Part shown: positions 38,569 through 63,134 of the stretch, in pieces
Position numbering within the stretch: position 1 is the first letter of the stretch
How the letters are laid out: the number at the start of each line of letters is the position of its first letter
DNA from: a virus
Taxonomy: Duplodnaviria; Caudoviricetes
Virus record (IMG/VR): IMGVR_UViG_3300021431_004524
Location: 160,001 to 224,000 of that record
Strand: one strand, 5' to 3'
DNA: 64,000 nt
Notes under the pieces: model-generated
The model's database searches: none
What the model was told of the DNA's origin: nothing
Seen by the model: the letters and a program-made list of their open reading frames with translations, nothing else
Made by a program: the position numbers and the translations under genes

Positions 38569-39444
38569 TTAATTAGTTTTTAACGCTTTTCTTAGTTTAT
38601 CCGTAACGTCAGGCAGATTATATTTCTCATATGTACCGTCAGGTTTAAGCCATATAAGCCTACGTGCAATCACTTTTAAACCTATATCTTCCATTGGTAT
38701 CTGATATGCTGATAATTGGCAAATATAGTGATTATATGCTTCATCTATCATATTATTGAATGGAGGTAACATACGTTGTTCGTTCTCACGTGCATAACTA
38801 TTTGTTAATGAAGCATTTGTCTTATAGTCTACTATGATGAAACCACTTTTTTTATCATCAGTGGGGTGTTTAAAATAGATTAATTTATCGAATGTCCCAC
38901 TATAGCCAAGTTCTTCATTATATACTCTTGCTTCTTCCAATACTGGGTATATACTGTCTATTGCGAACAAATCTTCATGAAATTTCAGTGCTGCTTCTTG
39001 TTTAGGACAAGCGGGGAAGAGATAGCCACACTCATATTGCATTTTAAAACGGTCATTAATCTCTTCTGGGTGTCCTTGGCAAAGATGACCAAGCATTTCG
39101 GCGTACTCATGGTGAATTGAACCACTTGTCGTAGCAAGATGATTGGTATATAGCCACTCTTCTTTAAGTTCTTCGGCAGGTATACCTAATTTAAGTGCTT
39201 TAAGTTCTGCTTTTTCATCCCAATCGACATAAGGCACGAATTTCTGTTCTATGATGGTAGTAACAGATGTGAGTTCTTTTTTAGTTCCATCTGGTTTGGG
39301 CAAAAAATATTTATGACCATCTTCAATAAACTCGATGTCCTTAAAACTTTCTATAATCTTATTTCTACCCTCTGTAACCTCAATTGGTTCCGGATTACGT
39401 TTGATACGTTCTAAGATATTATCAATTTTTAAAATACTTCTCAT
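38569..39444 (-). CDS. PD-(D/E)XK exonuclease-like protein
   Basis: H.Y...SVT, G...H, E, SGTFD, IVDYKT, QLSAY. Confidence 0.85.
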   Translation of the reverse strand: MRSILKIDNILERIKRNPEPIEVTEGRNKIIESFKDIEFIEDGHKYFLPKPDGTKKELTSVTTIIEQKFVPYVDWDEKAELKALKLGIPAEELKEEWLYTNHLATTSGSIHHEYAEMLGHLCQGHPEEINDRFKMQYECGYLFPACPKQEAALKFHEDLFAIDSIYPVLEEARVYNEELGYSGTFDKLIYFKHPTDDKKSGFIIVDYKTNASLTNSYARENEQRMLPPFNNMIDEAYNHYICQLSAYQIPMEDIGLKVIARRLIWLKPDGTYEKYNLPDVTDKLRKALKTN

Positions 39445-39448
39445 ATTG

Positions 39449-39480
39449 CAAATATACTACAAAAAAACGAGACTTCCAAA
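39449..39480 (-). promoter_or_regulatory. sigmaA-type promoter overlapping the ssb terminator
   Basis: TTTG (39480-39477), 20 nt, TATATTTG (39456-39449); AACGAGA/TCTCGTT stem plus T7. Confidence 0.75.
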
Positions 39481-39509
39481 GAAATCTCGTTCAATTTTTA
39501 ACTTTTTTT

Positions 39510-40046
39510 TTAGAATGGCAAATCATCCGTATCGTCATTGCCGTCCGTTGGCGGTGCAGCAGGTGCAGGCGCGGCTGTCTTTGCCGTAATCGGTGTTGTT
39601 GTCGGATTACGTGGCGTTGTCTTCTTTGCTGTTTGTGTTGTGTTTGCAGCGGCCTGCGGTGCTTGTGGTGCTGTTGTCGTTGTGGTGTTGTTGTTGGCAG
39701 TGCCCTCGGCATTCTGCGGATTACCGAAATTATTGTCAAACATAATATCATTGGCAGTTACCTCAAGTCCTGCTTCGGGCTTATTGGTCTGTGTACTGAT
39801 ATACGGACTTGCTTTCAAGTCACCAATTACCTCAATGGACTTACCCTTTGTCAGATATTGGGCAAGTTTTGCATGATTTGGATTAAATGAAGTTACACGG
39901 AACCAATATGTCTCACGTCCGTTGTTCTCAGCACTACCGGTATATTCGTTATTACCTACACGGAATTCAATAAACGGTGTACCATTCTTTGTTACTTTCT
40001 GCTCTGCATTTGCGGCCAAACGGCCTGATAGAAATAATTTTCTCAT
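39510..40046 (-). CDS. ssb: Single-stranded DNA-binding protein
   Basis: OB-fold L.GRL, T.W..V, YL.KG..I.V.G.L; disordered linker; DDLPF tip. Confidence 0.9.
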   Translation of the reverse strand: MRKLFLSGRLAANAEQKVTKNGTPFIEFRVGNNEYTGSAENNGRETYWFRVTSFNPNHAKLAQYLTKGKSIEVIGDLKASPYISTQTNKPEAGLEVTANDIMFDNNFGNPQNAEGTANNNTTTTTAPQAPQAAANTTQTAKKTTPRNPTTTPITAKTAAPAPAAPPTDGNDDTDDLPF

Positions 40047-40146: not shown

Positions 40147-41811
40147 TTATTTTGTATTTAAAACACTAACTTTACTGTGATTATATACTATAATACCACC
40201 ATTTGTGAATGATATGTTATAGTTATCCAATCCGGTTGTTTCGAAAGATACTACCTCATTAAGTGTTTCCTTATCCAAGAAATGAAGTTTATCGTCATTA
40301 TATAGTATGATGAATCTGTCATTGGATGAATATGGGTAAACATCGTCAATTTCCTTAGTTTTCATATCTCCGTACTTGTTGATAGTAAATAGGTAGTGTT
40401 TAACCTTATTTTTATTGTTTACGGTATATATACCGGTATTTTGGTTCTGTATTACATCAACAATTTTCTCATTTATAATATATGAAGATAACTTATTGTT
40501 TGAATTATAGAAAATAACCGAATTTTTACCAAGTACCTCATGTAAGCCATTGATTTTAATAAATGACTTGTGATATACGTTAGTTACGGTATATTTCACG
40601 TTATTAGCGTATATCTCGTCAAGATAGACAGTATACATCTTATCATCCTTTGTAATTACAATAAGGATATTCTCATATTGCTTGGCACAATGGACGTTTG
40701 TAAGTTGCAATGAGGTTATTTCCTCGAACTGCTTGCTTGAAGTGTTATAATGTCTTAGATGCCCATATCTGAGAGAATATATGTTCTTATCAGTCAGTAT
40801 GAGGTTTTCAGACTTATCCACGACACCGTAATTCATGATAATACCTTTACCATCTGCTGAATAAAGACGTTTCTCTGTATCTGTAATAACAGCGATATAT
40901 CTGTTCGATGAAATAACGTTTTTGACATTTCCACTGAACAGTTCCTTGATAAGAAGTTCATTAGACATGACAATTGCATCGAATTTAACGGTATCGACGT
41001 GTTTGCCGTTCATGTCTATAAGGAAACGCTTATTGAGTTGATATATCTCATAGAACATGTCCTTCAGTGCAGTATCGGATATGGGGGTATAGAACTTAGG
41101 CACCTTAATATTGCCAATTTCCTTTTCATTAAGAAGTGAAATATTGTTTATCTCCCTATCTTTCAACTTATCACGATATACGTTATGAATACCCTTATAT
41201 GGGTGCATACCGGTGAATAGGTTGAATATCATCACGGATAATGCAAAATAATCTGAGTTTTCACTTACAGTTCCATTGAAATAGAAGTCACGTACCTCTT
41301 CCAAAAGTTTGTCATTATGCTTATAGGATTTTGTCTGATAAGAGTCTACATCAATGAATTTAAGGTCAAGACGGTCATTGACCATGATATTGAATGGGTT
41401 AAGGTCTCCTATTACAATACCATTGTCATGTGCATTCTTAACACCTATGATTAGTTTTTCTGCAAGTTTCCTCTTATAGTCACTTGGAAGACCTCTTTTG
41501 TTTGCAAACATAGGAGAATATAGGGAATATATTGGATAATAGTCAGAAAGATTAAGTTCTTCCATAATATAACCATTATAATCCCCACTGACCGCAATTT
41601 GAGGCTTTACAAAGAGATTTCCATCAAGGGGTGATAACTCATCAATCTTTGTCTGAGAAAGTGCGTCAGAAGCCTTAAAATAGAGTTTTGCTACAAGTCC
41701 ACTACCATTTGAACCGGAGATTGGATAAATTGTACCCTCGCCACCGCTTCCAAGACTGTGGTTTTCATTAATTTGGTATCTATGGCCCTTAGTATCCTGT
41801 ATATTTATCAT
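40147..41811 (-). CDS. Ser/Thr protein kinase, YegI/TerY-P type
   Basis: LGSGGEG, VAKLY, H..GIVIGDLNPFN, FIDVDSY, SDYFAL, G.HPY. Confidence 0.85.
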   Translation of the reverse strand: MINIQDTKGHRYQINENHSLGSGGEGTIYPISGSNGSGLVAKLYFKASDALSQTKIDELSPLDGNLFVKPQIAVSGDYNGYIMEELNLSDYYPIYSLYSPMFANKRGLPSDYKRKLAEKLIIGVKNAHDNGIVIGDLNPFNIMVNDRLDLKFIDVDSYQTKSYKHNDKLLEEVRDFYFNGTVSENSDYFALSVMIFNLFTGMHPYKGIHNVYRDKLKDREINNISLLNEKEIGNIKVPKFYTPISDTALKDMFYEIYQLNKRFLIDMNGKHVDTVKFDAIVMSNELLIKELFSGNVKNVISSNRYIAVITDTEKRLYSADGKGIIMNYGVVDKSENLILTDKNIYSLRYGHLRHYNTSSKQFEEITSLQLTNVHCAKQYENILIVITKDDKMYTVYLDEIYANNVKYTVTNVYHKSFIKINGLHEVLGKNSVIFYNSNNKLSSYIINEKIVDVIQNQNTGIYTVNNKNKVKHYLFTINKYGDMKTKEIDDVYPYSSNDRFIILYNDDKLHFLDKETLNEVVSFETTGLDNYNISFTNGGIIVYNHSKVSVLNTK

Positions 41812-42332
41812 AGTGTTGGAAAATTATTATTTACCTCAATTGCAGTAAGCAATACAGCGTTATATATTGCACTAGTGATGTTTTCATCACGATTATCTGA
41901 ATTGAAATTACAGTTCATTATTTTAACCACATCAGGTAATTTCAGTTTTTTGTCAGTTTTAAGTGCAATTGCTATATAGATAGTACCGGGTTCGATACCA
42001 TCTACAGCATCAGGTCCTGCAAGTCCAGTAATTCCAATGGAAACATCTGTATCGAACAATTTCATAGCACCGGTTGCCATTTCCAACGCAACGTTTGCAC
42101 TAACAACATTAAAATCTTCAATTGTTGAATGCTTCACGCCAAGAAGTTTTTCTTTTGCTTCCGTCGCATATGTGATAACGCCACCGACTAAATATTTTGA
42201 TGCACCAGGTACTGATGAAATCCTATTGGCAATTCCACCGGCGGTACAACTCTCTGCCGTAGCAATTGTCAACTTCTTTTCTGTTAATAACTTGGCAAGT
42301 GTTTCTTGCGGTCTGTTAAAATCAATATTCAT
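41808..42332 (-). CDS. pncC: NMN deamidase (CinA C-terminal/PncC)
   Basis: ATAESCTAG, PGAS, Y..EAK, VS...A..MA.GA, GITG.AGP, G..YIA. Confidence 0.88.
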   Translation of the reverse strand: MNIDFNRPQETLAKLLTEKKLTIATAESCTAGGIANRISSVPGASKYLVGGVITYATEAKEKLLGVKHSTIEDFNVVSANVALEMATGAMKLFDTDVSIGITGLAGPDAVDGIEPGTIYIAIALKTDKKLKLPDVVKIMNCNFNSDNRDENITSAIYNAVLLTAIEVNNNFPTL

Positions 42333-43402
42333 AATTTTATACCGTGCTTTTTAAGTTGCTTAATAACATCTTCAACGGTAATTAATGTAATGTTTTCCTT
42401 TTCGTCAAACTTAATACCGTACTTGTTTTCCAAATCCATCATTAAGCCGACAGTATCGAGACTATCGAACCATAAATCATTTACCAATGAACTTGAACGT
42501 CTGATGGGATACTTTTTATCGACATATTTCTTGAAAATATCTTCGAGTTCTGCCGGTACCGCCTCATCTGGTCGTACAGCATCGATGTCAAGGATTTTAT
42601 CCAACGCTAAGAATCTCTCTTTACCTTCCTTACCCATAATTGGGAATGCGGGGTGAATATTCCATACGGTTCTATCATACTCAGTGTTAAGTTTTTCATT
42701 GAAATAATGCTCTTTTTCCCTATAGACAAATCTTCCGTACTTCTTACCGTCATCATAGGTATTCCAATCGATACCCTTTTCGTCAAGAAGCAATTTAATT
42801 TGTTCATCGCTATCAAGTCCTTCCAACTGCTTATGCGAAAGCCATGTCTGTGCTGTCTGTTGCTTTGAATTACGAATACAATCTATTTGTCTCCACAGAT
42901 AATAACTATATACATCATTGAAATTATCGACTGACCACGCCTTGCAATCAAATTCAGCAAGTTTAAGGTCAAGAATCATCTGTTTCAAATCAGCATTTGA
43001 ACAAGGTGTATCACAAAGGTCTGCAATTACCAATTGATTGAATTTTGCCGTTGCCATAGAAGGCACAATAGACAGAATCTTGGTAAGTCTGTTACCGAAA
43101 AACGAACAAGTTGTCTCATTGTCAAAATCAGTCAAGACAAACGTTATTTCATCACTCTGTACATATGCGAATTTACAACCTTCTACATATCGGCAAACAT
43201 ATTTTGCAACCTCATTCATTATATTGATGAACTTATCATCAAACGGTTTTTCATACTTGTTCTTGATAAGGCGCGAGAAGCAATGGCCGTCAATTGCTAT
43301 CATTGTATACCCTTTTAACGGTAGTCTTAAATCGGTTTTTGCTCTTAATTCAGTCATTCTCTGTTTGAGAGACTTTTCCGTTGAATCCATCTTCTTTTCC
43401 AT
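42329..43402 (-). CDS. Thg1-like tRNA(His) guanylyltransferase / 3'-5' polymerase fused to an acyl carrier protein domain
   Basis: DG..F, YVQSDEI, FD.K and WRQ.DC.RN motifs; C-terminal DL..DSLD.V..MM.LE..YGI. Confidence 0.85.
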   Translation of the reverse strand: MEKKMDSTEKSLKQRMTELRAKTDLRLPLKGYTMIAIDGHCFSRLIKNKYEKPFDDKFINIMNEVAKYVCRYVEGCKFAYVQSDEITFVLTDFDNETTCSFFGNRLTKILSIVPSMATAKFNQLVIADLCDTPCSNADLKQMILDLKLAEFDCKAWSVDNFNDVYSYYLWRQIDCIRNSKQQTAQTWLSHKQLEGLDSDEQIKLLLDEKGIDWNTYDDGKKYGRFVYREKEHYFNEKLNTEYDRTVWNIHPAFPIMGKEGKERFLALDKILDIDAVRPDEAVPAELEDIFKKYVDKKYPIRRSSSLVNDLWFDSLDTVGLMMDLENKYGIKFDEKENITLITVEDVIKQLKKHGIKL

Positions 43403-51284: not shown

Positions 51285-52052
51285 TTAATTTTGATTTTTA
51301 TAAAACTCTTCAGGTTTAGGGCATAACACAACCAATTCACTTCTAATTTGGTTTATAATTGGCTTGAATGTCTGTTTATACACTTCCCAAGGACTGTCTT
51401 TCATTGCATAAATCATAGTCCAATATTGATTTGCCGCTTGATAATCAACTATCTTACCAAATTTGGCAATCTGTATACCGAAAACCATTACACGTATTGA
51501 ATGGAATAACGATTTCTGTCCCCTATATAGGTCGTAATCCTTTTCAATGGTCATTTTCTTGTGTGCCTTTGCAAATGCATTACTCGCTATACTGGATACC
51601 ACTTGTCTTAACTTCCACTTATCAAGTTTGAAGTAAGGCTCATATCTCTTTACATCACCCTTGATTATGAGGTCAGAAGGAAGCCAAAACATTTCAAGGG
51701 CTATGATGTGATGTTCCATAACCATATTGATGAACGTTGACTCATTAATAAACTGATAGTCATTGTTATCCTTTTTAAATTCTGCAATACCATTAACATA
51801 ACCGGACAAATCAATCTCATCATCGACAATGGCAACAATGTCGACATCTGATTTATCAGTCATTGTACCATATACCTTTGAACCGTAATAGAACATTGTA
51901 ATTACATGTTCCATTAACTCATTGAAAAGTTCATCTGTATTTATTGAGTCAGTCATTTTAATATCCATCGGTGTTTCGTCCGTTTCTACCGTTTCTGCTT
52001 TATTAAAGCATGATTTAATTATTTTCTTCAACTTTGCTAATTGTCCCATCAT
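51285..52052 (-). CDS. Pol-beta-type nucleotidyltransferase
   Basis: YGS.VYGT...SD.D; KSLFHS.R...FG.QI. Confidence 0.8.
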   Translation of the reverse strand: MMGQLAKLKKIIKSCFNKAETVETDETPMDIKMTDSINTDELFNELMEHVITMFYYGSKVYGTMTDKSDVDIVAIVDDEIDLSGYVNGIAEFKKDNNDYQFINESTFINMVMEHHIIALEMFWLPSDLIIKGDVKRYEPYFKLDKWKLRQVVSSIASNAFAKAHKKMTIEKDYDLYRGQKSLFHSIRVMVFGIQIAKFGKIVDYQAANQYWTMIYAMKDSPWEVYKQTFKPIINQIRSELVVLCPKPEEFYKNQN

Positions 52053-52788
52053 TGTTTACAAATATTAACGGCTTTCCGTTCTTCATTAAAACCATTTTAT
52101 ACGGTATAAATTCATCAAGTGTTACGTTAATTGATGTCTGTCTAAACATCACGAAGAAAGTTCTTTCGTTGTATAAATTACTAATACTTTCTTTTTTAAG
52201 ACACTCATACATTTCCTTGTTTGCAATTATTGAATATACGTCTGACTTGATTATCTTATTAGCCAAATCATTCATTTTCCTTAATATTGCATCAACTGAT
52301 GTTTTCTCATACCATGACTTATAAGGTTTATACTCAGGATTCAATAACAGATAGTTCTTAATCTCATCGACGGATGCCTTATGTGCGGGCGGTATTGAAT
52401 TGCTGAACTTAGATTCTCCCATTCTATAGTCATCAACAAGGCAAAATTCAAAATCACCCTTATTTCTCCACATACCGAGATTTGCCCAAGAACAGTCAGT
52501 GTCAGATACGAATAACTGATATATATCAGTGTCATCCCTCATAGATGCAAGCGAAAGGAACAGTTCAATGTTATTTCCACAATTAATGTAGTCAGGACTG
52601 TTTGTATTAGTTCCTCTACCAAACATTGTGTAGTATACACCTGTTTTTTCAGTCACAAGACCACCATTTATGTATTCCGTTTCTGTTACGTATTCAGACA
52701 CATAGCCAAGTTCACGTAATACATATCTCACATAGGATGCATCCTCGTTGTAAACATTTATTATTAAGTTATTCTTGAATTTCGGCAT
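52015..52788 (-). CDS. Hypothetical protein
   Basis: 257-aa ORF; CG.N.ELFL.LA..RDDTD motif. Confidence 0.65.
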   Translation of the reverse strand: MPKFKNNLIINVYNEDASYVRYVLRELGYVSEYVTETEYINGGLVTEKTGVYYTMFGRGTNTNSPDYINCGNNIELFLSLASMRDDTDIYQLFVSDTDCSWANLGMWRNKGDFEFCLVDDYRMGESKFSNSIPPAHKASVDEIKNYLLLNPEYKPYKSWYEKTSVDAILRKMNDLANKIIKSDVYSIIANKEMYECLKKESISNLYNERTFFVMFRQTSINVTLDEFIPYKMVLMKNGKPLIFVNNDGTISKVEENN

Positions 52789-52804
52789 ATATACTTATTT
52801 TCTG

Positions 52805-52836
52805 CAAAGATACTACAAAAATTTGAAATAACCAAG
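52805..52836 (-). promoter_or_regulatory. sigmaA-type promoter (variant -33 CTTG)
   Basis: TATCTTTG (52812-52805); CTTG 20 nt upstream. Confidence 0.7.
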
Positions 52837-52855
52837 TGATTAACAATATTTAACC

Positions 52856-53728
52856 TCAATGATTATATCTGAATTGGTATTCTTGTCCTACTTGGATGCA
52901 ATTATTAGGTATAGTATCTGTAGTGAATACACCATGTTCATAGTTTGGGTCATAAAATAGATGCACAGTATCCGGTAAACGGTCTGTATGTATACCAAGC
53001 AAAGTATATTTTCCTTTTATATCATCTTTAAGATTTTTCAATGATAAGTCTTCTCCCAAATCATACAAGTCATTCATTGTTACATTACTTTTAACAAGAT
53101 ATATTCGTGGTGGATAACTAAAGAACATATTATCGTTTCTTGGTATTAAACCGGTTGTCATGATACTTGGAATATTTTCAGATGGGGTGAAGTGATAAAA
53201 GTATTTGTTTTCTTTCTTGATTGTTTCCGTCTCATCTTTTTGCGTAATCGGTTCAAATCGCATCTGTAATAAAGTATGACCATCCTTTTCAAGTGGTTTC
53301 TCGACAGATAAGAAATAACCCATTTTAGACATGTCATTAACAATAAGGTCATGGTTTTCACCAATATCAGCAATTAACAAATATATTGCGATACCATTAA
53401 ATGCCTCGACCTTATAAAACTGTTCATCAGCAAAATGATAAGTACCACGCAAGTGTTTAATAACATCGTCAGCATCAAATATTTGACCATAAGTTTCTTT
53501 AATGTATTGTTTTCCTTCTTTAATTAATGGGTTTCCATATACATAATTTTGACCAAAATCACGATAGTCCCTATTAATATTTTCCATTAAATCAGAAGAA
53601 AAACTATCGATATTGAAGATAACGGCATCATCAGAAATTGCTTCTGTTAATCTATCTGCTTCATTTTTAGTCATGTGTTTCCCCATTCGTAATGATAAGG
53701 AAAACATTTCATTTAATTTTTTATTCAT
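52856..53728 (-). CDS. Putative ADP-ribosyltransferase-fold protein (Tpt1-C/DarT-like)
   Basis: YH.T...N..SI...GL.P...RIYL...LL.I...T...IP. Confidence 0.6.
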   Translation of the reverse strand: MNKKLNEMFSLSLRMGKHMTKNEADRLTEAISDDAVIFNIDSFSSDLMENINRDYRDFGQNYVYGNPLIKEGKQYIKETYGQIFDADDVIKHLRGTYHFADEQFYKVEAFNGIAIYLLIADIGENHDLIVNDMSKMGYFLSVEKPLEKDGHTLLQMRFEPITQKDETETIKKENKYFYHFTPSENIPSIMTTGLIPRNDNMFFSYPPRIYLVKSNVTMNDLYDLGEDLSLKNLKDDIKGKYTLLGIHTDRLPDTVHLFYDPNYEHGVFTTDTIPNNCIQVGQEYQFRYNH

Positions 53729-53778
53729 ATAATATTATATTTTTCGTAAATATACTATTTTTAATTCATATAACAAAT

Positions 53779-53810
53779 AAAAAATGGGAACTTTATAAAA
53801 AAATTCCCAT
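53779..53810 (-). terminator. Intrinsic terminator
   Basis: ATGGGAA...TTCCCAT plus T6 on the minus strand. Confidence 0.65.
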
Positions 53811-53832
53811 CTTCTATAAATAACTTTAAAAG

Positions 53833-55632
53833 TTATGCCTCATCAGTTGTATCACCATAACCCTCAGCAGCCTCAATATCAACAGCTCCGGAATCATAGA
53901 CAAGGGCTTCTTTAAGTGTAAAACTTACACTCTTTAATTTCTCAGCACGAAGTACAGTATCACCGGCTTTACGAAGAACAAATCCTTCTCTTGGTGAATC
54001 CGGGAAGTTCTTACAGAGTGGTTCCGGTTCCTCCATGCCAAAATGTTCCTTATCGTTCTTCATACGTTCCAACAAAGCCTCATGCCAATGGTTCTCAGTG
54101 TCCAAATCGGGATAAAGTTCTTCAAGAGTACCGTGATAAAGTATATCGATTGGGTGGATACGCTTCCAATTATCATTACCTTCTGCTTTCATCCTTTCAA
54201 TTAACTTGTTAGTCCAATCAAGAACCTCAGATACCTCCCACTCTTTCTTAGTTCCATCTTCATTAGTAGTTGTAATACGATAGAACATGACAATATTCTC
54301 ACCTTCAGGGCATCCATAATCGTAAGCCTTCTGAATCATTGATTGTTCACCAGTAAGATAGCCACAGATTTCACCATATACTGTCATACCTTCATCAAGA
54401 TATGGATAGATAATATCACCATACTCAGTCCACAAGTCAGCATTATAGTAACCACCAGTTACATCTTGATTGATGTATTTATTCTTAATTACCTTACGTG
54501 AAGCATATACAGGGCCATATACGACCTCACTATCAGTAATTCTAAGTGATTTGAACAGATGTGTGAAATCAACAAACTTGTTAAACGTTCTCTTGAAGAA
54601 CGGAAGTTTAATTGGTTGATTTACATGAAGTTTGCCAATGATACAACTTGTTCCGTGTAGTTTAACACTAATATCTACAATATCATCCGGTTTGAAATAC
54701 TGAATATCTTTATTCAACTGGCTTGTGCTGTAGTGGAAGAAGAATTCGCCATCAATCATGCGGTCAAATCTCTTAATTGTTTTCTGTGCCTTATTCTTAT
54801 TACTCTTCTTCTGAGTTTCCGCCGGCATAGGTGGAATATATACCTTAACGAACAAATCACCGTTTACAGTGTCGAACTCTTGGCCAACGTATGCTTCAAT
54901 ATCTTCCATCGTAATAGATGAGTCATATTTAATCAAATCCTCTGGTGCAAACAAAACACCAAATGAAGGGGTATTTCTAAGAGTAAGACAACGAACGCGG
55001 CCATACTTGTTGAAGAAGCCACAATGTTTCTTAACCTCTGCAATAATGTCAGCACCAGACTTAACAATATCCTCTACTTCTTTCTTCAAGTTGGTATAGG
55101 TTGTGGTCTTTGCGATTGCACGTGCTGTATAATCGTCAGCCTGCTTCTGCAAAGTATCAATTTCAGCCTTCTTGATACCGTACTCTTCAGATGAACTATC
55201 AAGAGACTCAAGGTCTTTTGTCATCTTCTTAATCTGTTTGTTAATCTTAGCAGCCTTCTTGGTGAGATTATCCATTGAAGCCTTTACGTTCTTTGCCTCA
55301 TTACGGATAGCATCAGCCTTTGCCTTGATTGGTTCATAAGGCTTATAGATTTCATCAACTTCTTCCTTATTGGCATTCTTCTCACGGCAACTAATCTCAT
55401 AAAGGTTATTAACGGAAAGGAATTTCTCATTAAGTTGCGTCTCATTAGCGGCATATATCATAATGTCGCCTTCCTTTACTTGGTCTTTACGTACCACAAT
55501 CTGTGTACCAAACACATCTGTTTTAGCAAGGAAATCAGAACCCTCAATTGGGGTAAGTTCACCAACACGTACAATAGCGGCACTATATTCACTATTGAAT
55601 GCTTCACTTTTAGTAAATACGTTTTTTTCCAT
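53833..55632 (-). CDS. Rnl2/DRB0094-type RNA ligase with a coiled-coil insertion
   Basis: N-terminal OB-like domain; KLHGTS, YGEICG, FYRIT, REGFV, KLKS..F. Confidence 0.8.
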   Translation of the reverse strand: MEKNVFTKSEAFNSEYSAAIVRVGELTPIEGSDFLAKTDVFGTQIVVRKDQVKEGDIMIYAANETQLNEKFLSVNNLYEISCREKNANKEEVDEIYKPYEPIKAKADAIRNEAKNVKASMDNLTKKAAKINKQIKKMTKDLESLDSSSEEYGIKKAEIDTLQKQADDYTARAIAKTTTYTNLKKEVEDIVKSGADIIAEVKKHCGFFNKYGRVRCLTLRNTPSFGVLFAPEDLIKYDSSITMEDIEAYVGQEFDTVNGDLFVKVYIPPMPAETQKKSNKNKAQKTIKRFDRMIDGEFFFHYSTSQLNKDIQYFKPDDIVDISVKLHGTSCIIGKLHVNQPIKLPFFKRTFNKFVDFTHLFKSLRITDSEVVYGPVYASRKVIKNKYINQDVTGGYYNADLWTEYGDIIYPYLDEGMTVYGEICGYLTGEQSMIQKAYDYGCPEGENIVMFYRITTTNEDGTKKEWEVSEVLDWTNKLIERMKAEGNDNWKRIHPIDILYHGTLEELYPDLDTENHWHEALLERMKNDKEHFGMEEPEPLCKNFPDSPREGFVLRKAGDTVLRAEKLKSVSFTLKEALVYDSGAVDIEAAEGYGDTTDEA

Positions 55633-55664
55633 TTTCTTAATTCTTTTAATTTCTAATTTTGATG

Positions 55665-55696
55665 CAAATTTAATACTTTATTTCCACTCCACCAAA
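55665..55696 (-). promoter_or_regulatory. sigmaA-type promoter
   Basis: TTTG (55696-55693), 20 nt, TAAATTTG (55672-55665). Confidence 0.7.
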
Positions 55697-55726
55697 TATT
55701 TTTTGTTAAAAATACTAAAACCTTTA

Positions 55727-56407
55727 TCATTCTAATAATTTGCATTCTTCAGGTGTATACTTTTCATGCAGTTTATCCATCCACCATTTAGTCTTAAACT
55801 TTACTTTTGGTAATCTCTGACCTTTCATAAGCGTTGTTCTTCTACATACAACTCCTTCTTTTACATTTGGATATTTACAGTCAGGTTGCGTCCAATCATT
55901 ATCTTGTATTGATTTGATGAAATCCTTTGTCAGTTTACCTCTATATATTAATTCAGGTTGAATAATCTCCTTATGAGAATAGAATAGTTCCTGTAACGGT
56001 TTTAATTCAATAAAGCCTTTCTTCTTGATAAAGACATCAATTAATGCAAGTTTCAATTCATCTCCTGGTACATGAACACCCGCAAATGAATTTTCACCAT
56101 ACCATTCAAAATAGAACGTCACTTCATCAACGCCTGTAAATAGTCCTTTCTTCTTTGAGTTATCAGTTACAATCTGAGATAGCAATTGTGGGTAACAAGA
56201 GTTCTTGAACCATTTAACAGCATCGCCAAACTGTTCATCGGTCTCATCAAAGACACGTTTTCTTGAACCGAATTGGTCGAATTTCTTTGTCTTTGGTGAA
56301 TACTTTATACAAATGTTCTGCCCGTCTAACTTGTTATAGGCTGCAACCTCTTCACCTAATAACGTACCGTCATCTTGTATACGGTTTATTGTGTCGTAAT
56401 GTCTCAT
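55727..56407 (-). CDS. Minimal Rnl2-like RNA ligase (adenylation domain)
   Basis: KLDGQN, GSR, FEWYG, LIDV, EGVV, K.K. Confidence 0.8.
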   Translation of the reverse strand: MRHYDTINRIQDDGTLLGEEVAAYNKLDGQNICIKYSPKTKKFDQFGSRKRVFDETDEQFGDAVKWFKNSCYPQLLSQIVTDNSKKKGLFTGVDEVTFYFEWYGENSFAGVHVPGDELKLALIDVFIKKKGFIELKPLQELFYSHKEIIQPELIYRGKLTKDFIKSIQDNDWTQPDCKYPNVKEGVVCRRTTLMKGQRLPKVKFKTKWWMDKLHEKYTPEECKLLE

Positions 56408-56411
56408 TCTA

Positions 56412-57068
56412 TCAAAGTTTATCTTTTACAAAATAATATGCTTTATCATAATCCTTATTATCGGGATATAGTTCAATCGCCTTATCAATTAGGTTATCAA
56501 GTTTTTTACCCCAATGATTATAAAATTCATGCAATAAGAAATGTTTAGTAGGATGGCATTCATCAAAAACGTCTACCATTGTATCATCAAACGACATAAT
56601 ACTTGGTATATCATGCTCTATTACGTATTTCTTAACACGTTCGATGTCATTATCCCATTCTCTCATATGAAGTCTTACATCTTGGTATATTTGACGATAG
56701 AAAAACTCATTTATAAAGCCGTTGTATTCCTGTATAAACTGATTTGTCAATTCAATTAACTCAGGATAATGGTCATATTCCTTATCCAACTCTTCTTGTG
56801 TCGTATTAGGATAATATGTTTTGATAAATTCACAAACATCAGTATAGTTGTACTTTTTCTTTGCAAATTTATTAAAGACATTAACTTCTACATCCTTTGG
56901 TATATCAACACCTTCATTCCAAGCAGTTTGTTCTTCCTCATTACCAAACATACCGGGGTATAAATTCAATGTGTTTATATCAGGTGGTGTAGAACTGAAA
57001 CAGAACCAACCGTTTTCCTTTGTTTGTGCAAACCAAAAACCACCACTTTTAGTTTTATATATTTTCAT
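56412..57068 (-). CDS. Hypothetical protein
   Basis: 218-aa ORF. Confidence 0.65.
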   Translation of the reverse strand: MKIYKTKSGGFWFAQTKENGWFCFSSTPPDINTLNLYPGMFGNEEEQTAWNEGVDIPKDVEVNVFNKFAKKKYNYTDVCEFIKTYYPNTTQEELDKEYDHYPELIELTNQFIQEYNGFINEFFYRQIYQDVRLHMREWDNDIERVKKYVIEHDIPSIMSFDDTMVDVFDECHPTKHFLLHEFYNHWGKKLDNLIDKAIELYPDNKDYDKAYYFVKDKL

Positions 57069-57072
57069 GGTA

Positions 57073-57486
57073 TTACTCGTACTTATCCTTTAAACGTTTT
57101 AACTCAGAAAGCTCCTTTTTTTCAAGTTCTTTCTTTTCTTGTTCTGCTAACTGCTTATTTCTTGTTATGGCATCAGAGACTTGTTCATCAAGCGGTTTGT
57201 TAAGGTCTATTTCAATTACTATGTAATCACCATCATCATGATAGCCTTTAATAAATTTTATACTGTTATTAGTATACTCAACATCACACCAGTCAAAAAA
57301 CTTATCGGGGTATTTCTCATAATGCCATTGACAATTTTGAAACATTTCTTTCCATCCATTTATCATTTTTAATTGACTAAGAGTTTCACGGGCAACTCTT
57401 TCAATCTCTTTCTCTTTATTTTCCATTTCGGCATTTAACTTATTGCATTCCCTAATAAGTTTCAATGCCTTTCTTTGCATTTCCAT
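57073..57486 (-). CDS. Hypothetical protein
   Basis: 137-aa ORF; EL.RLK.KYE tail. Confidence 0.65.
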   Translation of the reverse strand: MEMQRKALKLIRECNKLNAEMENKEKEIERVARETLSQLKMINGWKEMFQNCQWHYEKYPDKFFDWCDVEYTNNSIKFIKGYHDDGDYIVIEIDLNKPLDEQVSDAITRNKQLAEQEKKELEKKELSELKRLKDKYE

Positions 57487-57497
57487 ATTATCTCTTT

Positions 57498-58322
57498 TTA
57501 AAATCTTAAATCATATATATCAAAATTACCGTTTCTCCACTTATCAAGCATCACAAACTGTATACCATTAATATACTCTTGGTTATGAAAATGATAATGA
57601 CCATAAAACCATTTATAAATCGGATGACCATCTTCAATCAGTTTATTGTATATATCATCCATCACCTTACGTTCAGCATCAATATCCGCTTCAAGTGCGG
57701 GGTCTTCCGTTAACCAGTATTGAATACCCTCCTTTGTTATTGGTTTTGCAAACGATGGGCAGGTATGTGTTGCTACAATGTCAATTTTTATACCACTTTC
57801 TTTTAATTCATTTAACGCCTCTTCATCATAAACAGGTGCTTCATCAGGCCAATATCCCTTTGGGCAATACAAATACGCCTCATCAATGCTACAGCCATGA
57901 TATATAGCATATTTCATAGCATTTTCCTTATATTTTACAAGGCGATATGTCCTATCGATGGATGTTGCTCCGCCCACGCAAAGAATATTATGTGTCGGTG
58001 TTTGAATGACAGTATAATCAGGTATTGCCTTGAAATACTTACGGTTTATTTTCTTACCGTTAAAATATTCCTTTGAGTCATGATTTCCATGAATGAATAT
58101 ACACTCATTATTGAATCGTGCGGCTGTTTTGTTAAGTTTATTAAATATATTCTTATAATGTTGTTCTTTTTCAAACCCGAAACCCACGTCTCCGCAGAAT
58201 AAGTATGTGGTGTCAGTAAATTCTGTACGTTTCATTAACCCATTTATGGAATTAAATTCTCCGTGCATGTCACCGACAAAGCATAATCCAGATTTATTTG
58301 TCTTTATGATGTTAAGTACCAT
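57498..58322 (-). CDS. Calcineurin-like metallophosphoesterase
   Basis: GDMHG, GDVG, GNHD, GGA.SID, TH..P, GHYH. Confidence 0.9.
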   Translation of the reverse strand: MVLNIIKTNKSGLCFVGDMHGEFNSINGLMKRTEFTDTTYLFCGDVGFGFEKEQHYKNIFNKLNKTAARFNNECIFIHGNHDSKEYFNGKKINRKYFKAIPDYTVIQTPTHNILCVGGATSIDRTYRLVKYKENAMKYAIYHGCSIDEAYLYCPKGYWPDEAPVYDEEALNELKESGIKIDIVATHTCPSFAKPITKEGIQYWLTEDPALEADIDAERKVMDDIYNKLIEDGHPIYKWFYGHYHFHNQEYINGIQFVMLDKWRNGNFDIYDLRF

Positions 58323-58549
58323 TAAATTTCCTCTACAGTAATCTTTACTTTCTTATTAAGTAATCCTTCATTGAATATTTTATGTGTCCTGCTTGGGTCA
58401 ACTGATGTAATTGTTACATCTACGGTTTCTTCATCATCAGGTTCTACATTATTATCCAATACAAATCTTGTCATTTTAAGATTTCTCTCATTATCAACAG
58501 AAAGCAAATCATTTACGTTTCCTTCTAGTTCTAAAATTATTTTACTCAT
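58322..58549 (-). CDS. Hypothetical protein
   Basis: 75-aa ORF; TATATTTG element upstream at 58586-58579. Confidence 0.6.
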   Translation of the reverse strand: MSKIILELEGNVNDLLSVDNERNLKMTRFVLDNNVEPDDEETVDVTITSVDPSRTHKIFNEGLLNKKVKITVEEI

Positions 58550-58586
58550 TTTACTTAAATTTATTTATATTTCGACAGCAAATATA

Positions 58587-59303
58587 CTATTTTTTCCCCA
58601 AATAAAGAAGGGAATACTGTTTAAAAAGTGTTAAATCATCCGGTGTGATATGTGGAAGATAAATCGGGGTGAAGAATACTTCAGCATTCTTTAAGAATTG
58701 CTTCCATATAGCAGTCTTAATCCTATTTACATTAGCCCTTGTTATTACATCTTTTTGAAATTTTCTTAAATTCTTTGGAATATCCTTATCTTCAACAACT
58801 TTATATCCACCCACACATGTCATGTTCTGAATTTTGAAATTAGAATCGACATACTGATAATAGTAATCTTCATCAGTGGATGCAGCACCAATAAGCAATC
58901 CTATTTCATTATCGGTTTTAAAATCATCAAAGGTAACTATTTTTCCACCATCCTTTACTAACTTATTTCTAATCAAGAAAAAATTAGATTTTTCATCATG
59001 ATGGTCATAGTGATATTTAAAATCTGTTATGATATTCCTTCTTCTCCATGCAAGAAACATATCATAATTGACAATATCTGTTTTAATTTCAGATAATTCA
59101 ACATCCCATTCACTATCCATAAATAACGTATCTTCATCGACCCAATATGAGGTGAATATATTACGATAGAAATACACCTTATTATCCTTGAAACTACGAT
59201 AAAAGGCAAATATCATATAATCGTTATGAATGCCTATTAGCATTTTACCGTCAGTTATCTTATCGAATAAGGGTCTGAAATCATTTAACTTCATCTTTGC
59301 CAT
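58587..59303 (-). CDS. Hypothetical protein
   Basis: 238-aa ORF. Confidence 0.65.
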   Translation of the reverse strand: MAKMKLNDFRPLFDKITDGKMLIGIHNDYMIFAFYRSFKDNKVYFYRNIFTSYWVDEDTLFMDSEWDVELSEIKTDIVNYDMFLAWRRRNIITDFKYHYDHHDEKSNFFLIRNKLVKDGGKIVTFDDFKTDNEIGLLIGAASTDEDYYYQYVDSNFKIQNMTCVGGYKVVEDKDIPKNLRKFQKDVITRANVNRIKTAIWKQFLKNAEVFFTPIYLPHITPDDLTLFKQYSLLYLGKK

Positions 59304-60078
59304 TAACTGTGTCCTCCTCTATACATTTTATTTTAATCATAGTGAAATCATCACCATTAAGCATCACTTCATTACCGGTATCTGAACATTTTCCTTTAAC
59401 GACTACATTGTATAACCTTTGTAAAGGCATTTTCTGATATTTCTCTTCACATGTATCTGTTTCAAAGAATATCTTCTTGGCATCCTCATTCTTGCTTGCA
59501 CCATATTGAGATACGAAACTCTCCAAGCCATCAGATGAAATACATATTTCCTTACAAATACTAAATACGCCTTTTTCTAATCTGCAATAGTTGTATAAAT
59601 AACTATCGAAATCTGCCGGTTTGACCGTTGATAAATACCAAACGGCATTTCCATTAGGGTCATGTACGTTTTCAAAGAGCCTTGTGTCTAATATACTGCG
59701 TCCATAGCACCCATCACCGGCCAGACAGATTGTATATTTCTCATTTTCCTTGTCGATGAACAAAAGCACTACAGTACTGAGCATTTCTTCATTGACCTTA
59801 TAGTTAAGAGACCATATCTTTCTGTTTAATTCCCTTAGAATGTTCTCTACTACGTTGGTTGCATAGATTGATGTATATTCCTCCAAGTTCTCACATATTT
59901 CCCTAAGTTTATACTTATGCATAGTAGAGGCGAAATGAGAGTCTACACCGGATGAACACCCATCAAATACTGCCGCAACAATGAATTTATCATTCTCATA
60001 CACAAGATAGTCATCCTCACAATGTAAATCGTGAAGACGGCCTTTGCTTATAAGTGTGTCTATCTTATATTCTTTCAT
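59281..60078 (-). CDS. PP2C-family protein phosphatase (YegK/TerY-P type)
   Basis: G..H...CED, V.DGCSS, ST, GDG, SDG and DD.T motifs. Confidence 0.85.
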   Translation of the reverse strand: MKEYKIDTLISKGRLHDLHCEDDYLVYENDKFIVAAVFDGCSSGVDSHFASTMHKYKLREICENLEEYTSIYATNVVENILRELNRKIWSLNYKVNEEMLSTVVLLFIDKENEKYTICLAGDGCYGRSILDTRLFENVHDPNGNAVWYLSTVKPADFDSYLYNYCRLEKGVFSICKEICISSDGLESFVSQYGASKNEDAKKIFFETDTCEEKYQKMPLQRLYNVVVKGKCSDTGNEVMLNGDDFTMIKIKCIEEDTVNGKDEVK

Positions 60079-60080
60079 CG

Positions 60081-60443
60081 TTATTTTTTATCTTCTAATC
60101 CGCATTTAGTACATTTATAATAGTCATAATGAGAATCATGACTATCATATACCCAATCATGAGTGCAATGTTCCTGTTTCTCCTTGAGGTATTTATCAAT
60201 TAAATCCAAATGTTCTTTTAACGGTTTAATATCCTCATTTATATGGGTTATAATTTCAGCATATGAATACCGGTCACACTTTATACCAAACCCATTAAGT
60301 GCTTTAACAGCATCGTCTATAGTATTACGGTTATCGTAATTTGAGTTAAGTTCCTTTTTTATATTAGATGAATAATCCTCAATTTCATCAAAAGAACTGC
60401 ATGCAATGAATACCCTTAACTCATCTTCTGTTTTCAAATCCAT
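60081..60443 (-). CDS. Hypothetical protein with C-terminal Zn ribbon
   Basis: C.H.W...C..CG. Confidence 0.65.
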   Translation of the reverse strand: MDLKTEDELRVFIACSSFDEIEDYSSNIKKELNSNYDNRNTIDDAVKALNGFGIKCDRYSYAEIITHINEDIKPLKEHLDLIDKYLKEKQEHCTHDWVYDSHDSHYDYYKCTKCGLEDKK

Positions 60444-60464
60444 ATTAAGCGTTTTTTATGAATA

Positions 60465-61958
60465 TTAAGCAGATTCAGTATTTTCTTCACCATATACCTT
60501 GAAACCGTTATCCCTACGAATATTGGCAAATGCCTCAATCGGCGTAAACCAGTCCGTACCGTGTCCTTTGTAATCACCGCATTTAATGTCGTAAGGTTTG
60601 TCTAACTGATATGATGATTTGTATGCAAAGCCCTCGACGGCATCAATATACATACTATACTCGCCCTCATTTAAGGTAATTGTCTTGTCAGTCTCAAAAT
60701 TATTTTCAAGCCAATCCTTATATGTGTTAGCAAACGTAGTATCAATACTAACACATAAATCTTCACCGAACAACTTGGTTAATTCATCATCAGTGAATGT
60801 CTTATGTTCTTGTGTCTTTCCTCGCCCATTAGTCTTATAACCCAAGAAAAGGAAATCGAAATACTTATATTGCTCTTCAATCTTCTGTATAAATTCCCTT
60901 GTCTTCTCAACGCCAAGAAGTTCAGGTATCAGATGAATTGTAATCTGCTTATAGCCATCACGATTGAATGAGGACTTAAAATCGCCAAGAATATCAATAT
61001 CTTTCTCATCAGTTACGGATACACCTATTGCAGTGACATAATCCTTAAATAATTTAAGATATTTCTCGTTTGAAAGAATTTCTTTGCAGTCTTTTGCATT
61101 AATGGTCGTATTAATAATGTGACCACATTCTTTCATGTACTTGAACAACTCTTCAAGATGTGGATAAAGAAGTATGTTTCCACCGCCAACTGAGAACTCA
61201 ACACGTCTGTCATAATGGTCATATTCATTTGACGATAAACATCTAATTATACCCTTAAGTTTGAGGAAATCGGCCTCTTTCTCCTTCATTGAAGAGTCCA
61301 TGAAACAGAACGGGCAACCATGTTGGCACTTGTTAGTGATGCGAAGGTCAACAAGTTCCGGATATGATGGAACACAGTCACCTTTTTCGGTCTTGAAACG
61401 AATTCTTCCATTCCATCCGTACCCAATCCAATAGTTACCGTTCTTTACTACACCTTTTTGGGCATTACCAATTCCAATATCATCAGGCAATGCTATTTCT
61501 TTATGCCCCTCTTTTGTCTCATATACAAATTCCATTTCATCAGAACCACCGACAATAATAATGTCATCATCATCAATTACGTTTTTAAGGAAATCAATAC
61601 TGGCTTCAAGTTCTGTGCCTTTTCTGAAACTAAGTGAACCTCTGGTATACATACCGAACGTTTCATACTGACCGTCTTCCTTTGCTTTCTTGGCAAGTTC
61701 AGAGTATTGTTTCATTTCCGGATAATACTGACACATTATGTCGAATAGTATCTCATTCCAAAATATATTCGCAGCGACGTACTTAATCTTAGCCTCTCTT
61801 GAAGCAGCAATCGTCTCGTCAAACCTATCATAATAGTTTAGTTTAAAGATATTCAAATCCTTAAACATTTCATCCTTATTACGATAGATTATTGAATGTG
61901 TTGAACTACTGTTGGTTGCAAAACCCTTTCTGAAATTCTTTAAATAAACTGCTCTCAT
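60465..61958 (-). CDS. Radical SAM protein with N-terminal TNSSSTHS domain
   Basis: CQHGCPFC (CX3CX2C), GGG; R.GF.TNSSSTHS. Confidence 0.85.
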   Translation of the reverse strand: MRAVYLKNFRKGFATNSSSTHSIIYRNKDEMFKDLNIFKLNYYDRFDETIAASREAKIKYVAANIFWNEILFDIMCQYYPEMKQYSELAKKAKEDGQYETFGMYTRGSLSFRKGTELEASIDFLKNVIDDDDIIIVGGSDEMEFVYETKEGHKEIALPDDIGIGNAQKGVVKNGNYWIGYGWNGRIRFKTEKGDCVPSYPELVDLRITNKCQHGCPFCFMDSSMKEKEADFLKLKGIIRCLSSNEYDHYDRRVEFSVGGGNILLYPHLEELFKYMKECGHIINTTINAKDCKEILSNEKYLKLFKDYVTAIGVSVTDEKDIDILGDFKSSFNRDGYKQITIHLIPELLGVEKTREFIQKIEEQYKYFDFLFLGYKTNGRGKTQEHKTFTDDELTKLFGEDLCVSIDTTFANTYKDWLENNFETDKTITLNEGEYSMYIDAVEGFAYKSSYQLDKPYDIKCGDYKGHGTDWFTPIEAFANIRRDNGFKVYGEENTESA

Positions 61959-61970
61959 ATTAATTTATCT

Positions 61971-63134
61971 TTAATGCTTAAATTGCTTATCCCAAATCAT
62001 CTCATTATATTCCGTAGGTTCTGGGAAATCAAACTGACTCCACATACGGTCAATTACCTCTAACGGCATCATTCCCTTACGTCTGTCTTTATATGTCTGC
62101 AAGTCAGGTGCTTCTATATACACATATACAATTCTCGGCATGAACCTTAATGTCATATCAGTATATGCATCACGATACATCTTACGGACATTAGTGTTGT
62201 CAATAACAAAATCCTGCTTATTCTTACAACACTCCAACATTCTCTCATTGAATATCTCCGTTACATGACTTTCCTGTTCCTTATTACCTTGTGGCTTCTC
62301 ACCCTTGATACCAATCTCTGTACGTATAAGGTCACGGCTAATCTGAACGGCATCTTTAAGACACTTCTCAATATAATACGATTTACCACTACCAGGCACG
62401 CCTATCATTACATACATGGTGAATTGACCGTAATCCTTTGGCAATGCACATCCTTCCGGGAACGGTCTGTCCTTGAAATGGAAGAACCTTATTTTTTCAT
62501 ATTCATTGTTAAACTCATAAGGGGTTTCATAACAATTCAATCCTTCGGCAAGTGACTTGATACGTTCCTCTTTTTCCGCAATAAACTCTTCATCCTCTTC
62601 ATCGTTCTTAGAGCCAAGAGAATCACAGATATTAAGGATAAGCATATCCTTAACCCTTACCCTACCATGAGATAACTGTATCATCTTACGGGTAGACATT
62701 TCCTCCTTATCAAAGATATGGTGTAAATCCATGTGATGACGTACCATATAGCAAACCTTCTCACGTAATGTAAATTCCTCATCAAAGAATAGCCTACGTG
62801 TAATCTTAGCACCTACAAGCCCATGACACTTTGTAGTGTAATCACCCTTTTCCTCATCGAACTTGGTGGTTGAAGGCTTTCCAAGGTCATGGCATATTGC
62901 GGCAGACATCATCATAATGTAATATTCATTGTCTGATGGCTCAACGTTCTCACGGTTAAGAAGATATGAACGCATAGTATCTGTCACAGCAATCTCATGA
63001 TTTCGTACATTTCCCTCTTTGTGCCATGTCTTAGATTGTTCACAGGTTTCCATATCCTTGAATTCCTTGATTGAGAAAATCTTATCCCAATCCGGAAGCC
63101 ATGTCTCTTGATTAAATAATTCCTTAAACTTCAT
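61971..63134 (-). CDS. HD-domain phosphohydrolase fused to a P-loop (AAA_33) polynucleotide kinase
   Basis: WH.EG.V..H, CHDLGK, HH; GVPGSGKS, SRD.IR, DNTN. Confidence 0.88.
   Translation of the reverse strand: MKFKELFNQETWLPDWDKIFSIKEFKDMETCEQSKTWHKEGNVRNHEIAVTDTMRSYLLNRENVEPSDNEYYIMMMSAAICHDLGKPSTTKFDEEKGDYTTKCHGLVGAKITRRLFFDEEFTLREKVCYMVRHHMDLHHIFDKEEMSTRKMIQLSHGRVRVKDMLILNICDSLGSKNDEEDEEFIAEKEERIKSLAEGLNCYETPYEFNNEYEKIRFFHFKDRPFPEGCALPKDYGQFTMYVMIGVPGSGKSYYIEKCLKDAVQISRDLIRTEIGIKGEKPQGNKEQESHVTEIFNERMLECCKNKQDFVIDNTNVRKMYRDAYTDMTLRFMPRIVYVYIEAPDLQTYKDRRKGMMPLEVIDRMWSQFDFPEPTEYNEMIWDKQFKH

Follow-up and report, generated by a model that had tools for sequence, protein, structure and literature searches.

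The window analysed here, a stretch of 64,000 nucleotides of a virus of the Caudoviricetes (positions 160,001 to 224,000 of the record IMGVR_UViG_3300021431_004524), carries on its minus strand a gene for a Thg1-like protein (TLP) that ends in an acyl carrier protein (ACP) domain. New in this work is that the ACP segment, as identified by comparison with the sequences of related phages, is an exchangeable cassette. We infer, tentatively and at somewhat less than an even chance, that the protein repairs tRNA 5' ends and that its ACP is an autonomous module, probably phosphopantetheinylated, which docks on a host ACP partner or acts as a decoy for it.

The initial annotation had described a single open reading frame (ORF) with Thg1 motifs followed by an ACP-like domain, and this description was borne out by profile matches, by an AlphaFold2 model and by Foldseek searches with that model. 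The model, for which 19 homologues were the input, has a mean predicted local distance difference test score (pLDDT) of 83.8; in its ACP part most 10-residue blocks score 80-88 and one block 67. The gene has a second possible start at Met5 (43390).

Residues 23-157 match the Pfam family Thg1 (PF04446) with 87.3 bits (cut-off 29.2 bits; E 1.1e-24), and residues 10-252 match PHROG 4717, 'tRNA-His guanylyltransferase', with an E value of 2.8e-53. The nearest solved structure by sequence is the TLP of Bacillus thuringiensis (BtTLP; 4KGK, E 2e-31 over residues 13-265), followed by Thg1 of Candida albicans (E 7e-11). When the predicted model was compared with the PDB by Foldseek, ranks 1-32 were all Thg1 or TLP chains (best 4kgm, E 9e-19, template-modelling score (TMt) 0.88). 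The palm motifs IDGHCF (D38) and QSDEIT (S83-D84-E85) are invariant in 19 relatives and align with the motifs of 4kgk and 3wbz; the metal-binding carboxylates of the palm domain of human Thg1 are D29, D76 and E77. Because the domain is nearest to BtTLP and because its alignment has IRNSKQQ in place of the HINNLYN of eukaryotic Thg1 (C. albicans), it is classified as a bacterial-type TLP with intact active-site residues.

TLPs activate the 5' end with ATP or GTP and then add nucleotides in a templated manner to 5'-truncated tRNAs (PMC4820378, PMC3701042). Thg1 of phages has been interpreted as restoring the 5' ends of tRNAs, as part of tRNA repair in jumbo phages (PMC7824862).

The last 55-75 residues of the protein match the ACP models NF002148 (2.1e-12), TIGR00517 (2.2e-11) and PHROG 5934 ACP (9e-9), and the C-terminal part matches ACP sequences of the PDB with E values down to 4e-7. 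The relatives P0009 and P0015 have a precomputed match to PF00550, that of P0015 being marked as weak. The initial annotation had named a C-terminus without the ACP fold as an outcome that would speak against it; in the AlphaFold2 model, however, this part overlays the solved ACPs 2ehs, 6lvu and 4zjb_G (Foldseek TMt 0.75-0.80, root-mean-square deviation 1.9 A over 70 columns). The codon given there for the serine of the DSL motif, 42461-42463, was exact, the motif FDSLD (residues 312-316) being encoded at 42455-42469.

In the fusion family all 15 fused copies or fragments compared have this serine. Across these 15 ACP domains, which are mostly 25-64% pairwise identical, the invariant columns are L310, S314, D316, E325 and Y328 (L39, S43, D45, E54 and Y57 of the 272-357 segment), and by alignment the five lie at the core of the helix II signature of ACPs. 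Helix II of ACPs is the surface that is bound by AcpS and by other ACP partners. Sequence and predicted model identify the C-terminal domain as a carrier of the AcpP type that has kept the serine and the helix II signature.

Among the 1240 relatives that a search of 5.8 billion proteins yielded, the group nearest to the query (P0002-P0016; 342-360 aa, 62-95% identity) matches it over its entire length, and numerous TLPs of ~270 aa cover just 73% of it. In the alignment the ACP tail is seen in P0002, P0003 and P0006-P0016; at least 13 protein clusters of 62-95% identity from independent metagenomes carry the fusion. The same in-frame architecture recurs in independent assemblies from JGI, ENA and Logan over this range of identity, which refutes the explanation that two genes were merged through a sequencing error, and an artefact of assembly or annotation is virtually excluded.

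Nor do the relatives encode the two proteins as two clean ORFs, a possibility for which the initial annotation had proposed a check. Two seeming split forms were rejected as such: that of P0122 (L022) is a run of N in the scaffold, and that of P0123 (L021) is due to one TGA, in frame, at the codon of the conserved Trp187. At L021:1106-2131 the TLP-ACP gene is broken only by this TGA, where the window has TGG; it is either a nonsense mutation or the mark of a phage that reads TGA as Trp.

In a quick maximum-likelihood tree of 114 TLP domains all 14 fused forms fell into one 27-row clade (Shimodaira-Hasegawa-like approximate likelihood ratio test 93), with unfused forms nested among the fused ones. 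On this tree the TLP-ACP fusion arose once, in this clade of large gut or rumen phages. It is apparently undescribed so far, as had been supposed at the outset: among GenBank phages none of 155 TLP records reaches into the ACP, the ACP part itself matching only one unrelated record, and no paper in the literature searched contains 'Thg1' and 'acyl carrier protein' together. Sequence and structure searches of the Atlas returned plain Thg1 clusters only.

The exchange of the ACP segment is most evident from a comparison of the window with the related locus L012. Over ~4 kb (upstream genes, TLP domain, CinA, kinase) the two DNAs are ~95% identical, and a fall to 55-63% identity is confined to positions 42333-42618, which are the ACP segment. 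The TLP domains of the pair are 93% identical, with a synonymous divergence (dS) of 0.25; the ACP domains are 53% identical, with dS saturated. Because synonymous sites are saturated in the ACP, its divergence points to replacement of one allele by another, not to fast adaptive change. The identity matrices of the two domains conflict: the TLP of P0003 is nearest to that of the window protein P0001 (93%), and the ACP of P0003 is nearest to that of P0009 (90%), with the TLPs of P0003 and P0009 just 83% identical. Read from these sequences, the ACP part is a module that lineages exchange by recombination and sometimes delete.

A smaller second drop in DNA identity between the window and L012 (66%, in one 60-nt window) lies at 43279-43338, within TLP residues ~22-41. 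Mutagenesis of the type caused by diversity-generating retroelements was considered as the source of ACP variability and rejected, there being no template repeat of the ACP and no reverse transcriptase in the 235-kb record, and the synonymous sites being saturated.

On at least three occasions a lineage has lost the ACP but kept an intact TLP. In L014/L015 (P0005, found on four contigs from different samples) the segment YPIRRSSSLVNDLWFDSLDT, which includes the serine, has been lost together with the C-terminus; in L010 (P0018) the ACP core has been removed by a clean in-frame deletion; and in L001 (P0017) the C-terminal end consists of unrelated residues. These independent deletions and truncations, and an amino-acid evolution of the ACP that is ~3 times faster than that of the TLP, would be expected of a neutral passenger, captured by chance, contributing little and now decaying, beside a TLP that alone matters. 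We consider such a passenger rather unlikely, since at least 13 clusters, with overall identities as low as 62%, have kept the fusion, since neither the serine nor the helix II signature varies even between ACPs that are 25-35% identical, and since divergent ACP alleles are maintained and re-assorted, not just eroded. The ratio of nonsynonymous to synonymous substitution rates (dN/dS) of the ACP is moreover 0.09-0.15 where measurable. In one close pair, the window and L011, it is 0.09 for the ACP and 0.08 for the TLP, which indicates purifying selection on the ACP, in this pair as strong as that on the TLP. The invariant serine and the purifying selection together argue against a dead passenger.

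In the interpretation that we prefer, the TLP domain would rebuild 5'-truncated tRNAs, activating the 5' phosphate with ATP or GTP and then adding nucleotides in a templated manner in the 3'-5' direction. Its substrates would be the phage's 18 tRNAs or tRNAs of the host, and it would form part of the RNA-repair kit of the phage. The ACP domain would probably be phosphopantetheinylated by the host's AcpS, since no phosphopantetheinyl transferase (PPTase; PF01648) of the phage was found in the 235-kb record, which is ~60% complete. A second ACP or other carrier protein is absent from this record, and so are genes for fatty acid synthases (FAS) and polyketide synthases (PKS). The ACP would be an autonomous plug-in; by binding a host protein that partners with ACP it would place or regulate the repair enzyme, or it would act as a decoy. 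Its cassette-like exchange and its repeated loss fit the idea of a targeting or decoy module, which the initial annotation had already put forward. Because ACP alleles re-assort freely on near-identical TLPs, the two domains are unlikely to be closely integrated partners in catalysis.

One partnership of this kind would amount to a new chemistry. Thg1-type enzymes form an A(5')pp(5')RNA intermediate, and an ADP-pyrophosphate linkage is what the carrier serine attacks in catalysis by AcpS. By analogy only with this reaction of AcpS on CoA, Ser314 or its phosphopantetheine arm might attack the A(5')pp(5')RNA made by the TLP, giving a protein-linked or pantetheine-capped RNA 5' end, and the covalent tether would hold Ser314 close to the enzyme. 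We know of no precedent for the capture of an activated RNA 5' end by a carrier serine. The free swapping of alleles just mentioned, and the fact that several lineages dispense with the ACP, make this chemistry highly improbable. The 5'-end activation step of Thg1-type enzymes is described in PMC4820378.

The ACP could also be a host-takeover decoy that works independently of the TLP by titrating or poisoning an ACP-dependent enzyme of the host, the fusion serving only for co-expression; AcpS, FAS or lipid A enzymes and SpoT-like proteins would be the candidate targets. An AcpP-like helix II with the DSLD motif and the autonomy of the module would suit such a decoy, as would the category in which PHROG 5934 places phage ACPs, 'moron, auxiliary metabolic gene and host takeover'. 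But the ACP of the fusion family was found only in attachment to a TLP, which speaks for some functional coupling: among 1.84 billion representatives there was no stand-alone ACP nearer than ~47% identity, and a homologue search restricted to the ACP region returned the same fusion family only. We consider the independent decoy unlikely.

Several points weigh against the interpretation as a repair enzyme with a docking or decoy module. The ACP scores lie below the curated cut-offs, which are cut-offs for whole proteins (PF00550 (PP-binding), 15.3 versus 20.8 bits; TIGR00517, 43.5 versus 70.45 bits). With a net charge of -1 the ACP of the window is the least acidic of the family (other fused copies, -2 to -11), which could weaken its recognition by AcpS, and a PPTase of the phage could lie in the missing part of the incomplete record. 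Repeated loss and fast divergence of the ACP fit a dispensable passenger as well. Finally, the TLP gene always lies beside replication genes (SSB and exonuclease in the clade of the window, DnaB in Lak phages), so that a role of the TLP on non-tRNA substrates is possible.

Table 1. Features of the TLP-ACP locus, of its surroundings in the window and of neighbouring genes in related loci (positions without a locus name are those of the window).
Feature	Position	Strand	Remark
TLP-ACP gene, whole (P0001)	42329..43402	-	357 aa + stop; single uninterrupted ORF
TLP domain, residues 1-270	42593..43402	-	catalytic D38, S83-D84-E85 invariant in relatives
Conserved linker DIDxxRPDExVP	42557..42592	-	retained even where relatives have lost the ACP
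AcpP-like carrier domain, residues 283-357	42332..42556	-	helix II = DSLDTVGLMMDLENKY
Ser314 codon, predicted 4'-phosphopantetheine attachment serine	42461..42463	-	invariant in all fused relatives
Hyper-divergent cassette	42333..42618		55-63% nucleotide identity to L012 inside ~4 kb otherwise ~95% identical
CinA/PncC-family gene	41808..42332	-	start overlaps the TLP-ACP stop by 4 nt
Ser/Thr protein kinase, 554 aa	40147..41811	-	4-nt overlap with the CinA stop; with CinA, an insertion found in a subclade only
SSB	39510..40046	-	downstream neighbour of the TLP gene, conserved in all relatives examined
Terminator-like hairpin	39465..39492	-	directly after SSB
Exonuclease (PHROG 298)	38569..39444	-	conserved neighbour past SSB
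Pol-beta nucleotidyltransferase (NTase)	51285-52052	-	
Protein with PHA02142 OB-fold domain	53833-55632	-	
RNA ligase	55727-56407	-	
Metallophosphoesterase	57498-58322	-	
Radical SAM protein	60465-61958	-	among the RNA-repair-type genes
HD + AAA_33 P-loop kinase	61971-63134	-	resembles Pnk
40-aa ORF	L001:8946-9068, L002:9068-9190, L010:6875-6997, L012:6446-6568		
Tad2-like, VWA and Sequestin-family genes	L001:15374-15706, L002:14952-15284, L010:631-963; L009:12386-12616		

In the window the TLP-ACP gene is followed by CinA and a Ser/Thr kinase, the three joined by 4-nt overlaps, and then by SSB, a terminator-like hairpin, which is a possible operon end, and an exonuclease (Table 1). The core conserved in the relatives is TLP(-ACP), SSB and exonuclease. 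CinA and kinase are limited to a subclade (the window, L001, L002, L012/13 and L014); they are missing in the fused loci L008, L009 and L023/24, in which TLP-ACP leads straight to SSB, and in the unfused L004. Because three fused lineages have neither CinA nor kinase, the fusion predates the kinase, and CinA and kinase are a later insertion. About 300 C-terminal residues of the kinase are without a family match. A PADLOC scan left TLP-ACP without a match and showed for the kinase no more than a generic similarity to kinases, and a scan for sigma-70 promoters gave a number of sites not above that in shuffled sequence.

The initial annotation had raised the possibility that the ACP is the phospho-substrate of the kinase in its operon. 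In the subclade with the kinase this would take the form of a switch, in which phosphorylation of R-[RK]-S-[ST] in loop 1 of the ACP, or of Ser314, controls the TLP or the ACP. The 4-nt overlaps couple TLP-ACP, CinA and kinase translationally, and R[RK]S[ST] is present in loop 1 of the fused proteins at loci with the kinase cassette (window, L002, L012/13; for this comparison L011 and L021, where an ORF on the CinA side is visible before the contig ends, were grouped with them). The three lineages without the kinase have KKAT, TKST and TMST at this place, which is a weak lead. The association of loop-1 motif and kinase represents, however, one evolutionary transition, the fusion predates the kinase and occurs without it (L008, L009, L023/24), and L001 and L014, which have lost the ACP, still carry the kinase. 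These findings weaken the substrate idea, and we regard the switch as quite improbable.

Around the TLP gene the related loci contain further genes. A conserved 40-aa ORF (..KKLRREIIETLLRNEYYVGSSEA..VWDD) lies directly downstream of TLP(-ACP) and precedes CinA in L001, L002 and L012; it is missing in the window, in L011 and in L014. Genes for Tad2-like proteins (an anti-Thoeris family), VWA proteins and Sequestin-family proteins are located ~5-7 kb or less from the TLP gene, and the TLP neighbourhood in the relatives looks rich in anti-defence genes. In L012 and L013 a 639-aa ORF with a weak LAGLIDADG match, which may be a homing-endonuclease insertion, follows SSB where the window has the exonuclease (L012:10384-12303, L013:10215-12134). 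In Lak megaphages, as read with TAG=Q in Prevotella phage Lak-B2 (L007:3950-6438), genes for an S1-domain protein and a DUF4494 protein come before an unfused TLP of 284 aa, and the next gene downstream encodes a DnaB-like helicase.

The virus record from which the window was taken comprises 235,653 bp with a GC content of 34.6% and is ~60% complete as estimated with CheckV. An array outside the window (G000:C1:134639-144082) encodes 18 tRNAs and a tmRNA with the tag GETTYALAA, which resembles the tags of Bacteroidota. For its tRNA-His(GTG) (136965-137039) the genome itself encodes G-1, C73 and CCA, and the acceptor stem contains an A3-C70 mismatch. Genes of the RNA-repair type are clustered on the minus strand of the window at 51285-63134 (Table 1), and the presence of an RNA ligase, a Pnk-like kinase, a metallophosphoesterase and a Pol-beta NTase supports an RNA-repair role of the TLP. 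Host assignment through GTDB yielded contigs of metagenome-assembled genomes only, with the mixed labels Bacilli, Mycoplasmatota, Paludibacteraceae and Bacteroidales. The virus is a large gut or rumen phage; hints to its probable host are 50% identity to Prevotella Lak phages, the GC content and the tmRNA tag.

What the widespread TLPs do naturally in bacteria and phages is poorly defined, and we know of no accessory domain that had been tied to them before. A conserved carrier tail with an intact cofactor serine offers an experimental handle on the host protein to which the repair enzyme would be wired. The cassette-like exchange of ACP alleles between near-identical phages suggests that this contact has been diversified under pressure from the host, as in anti-defence and receptor modules. 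If the chemistry between activated RNA and the carrier domain were true, the phage would be making an RNA-end modification of a new kind.

Among characterized proteins the TLP domain is most like BtTLP (4KGK/4KGM), with which it shares the fold, the catalytic QSDE and DG motifs and the absence of HINNLYN. Missing from BtTLP are the C-terminal ACP of ~75 residues and an insertion of 14 residues with CDTPCS; TLP-ACP also differs in being encoded by a phage, next to genes for SSB and an exonuclease. With the Thg1/TLPs of phages such as the Prevotella Lak megaphages, Bacillus phage G and BCP78-like phages it belongs to one family (PHROG 4717), its identity being 50% to those of the Lak megaphages and 33-36% to those of the Bacillus phages; the best matches among GenBank phage TLPs end at residue 270-277, leaving the ACP part uncovered in all 155 records. 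The ACP domain resembles AcpP of type II FAS (TIGR00517, PF00550) in the DSLD serine motif, in the conserved helix II (DSLDxVELxMxLExKY) and, by overlay of the predicted model, in its small helical bundle. AcpP, however, is a free protein, whereas the phage ACP is the tail of an RNA enzyme, is less acidic, has a basic R[RK]S[ST] loop and scores below the cut-offs of the AcpP models.

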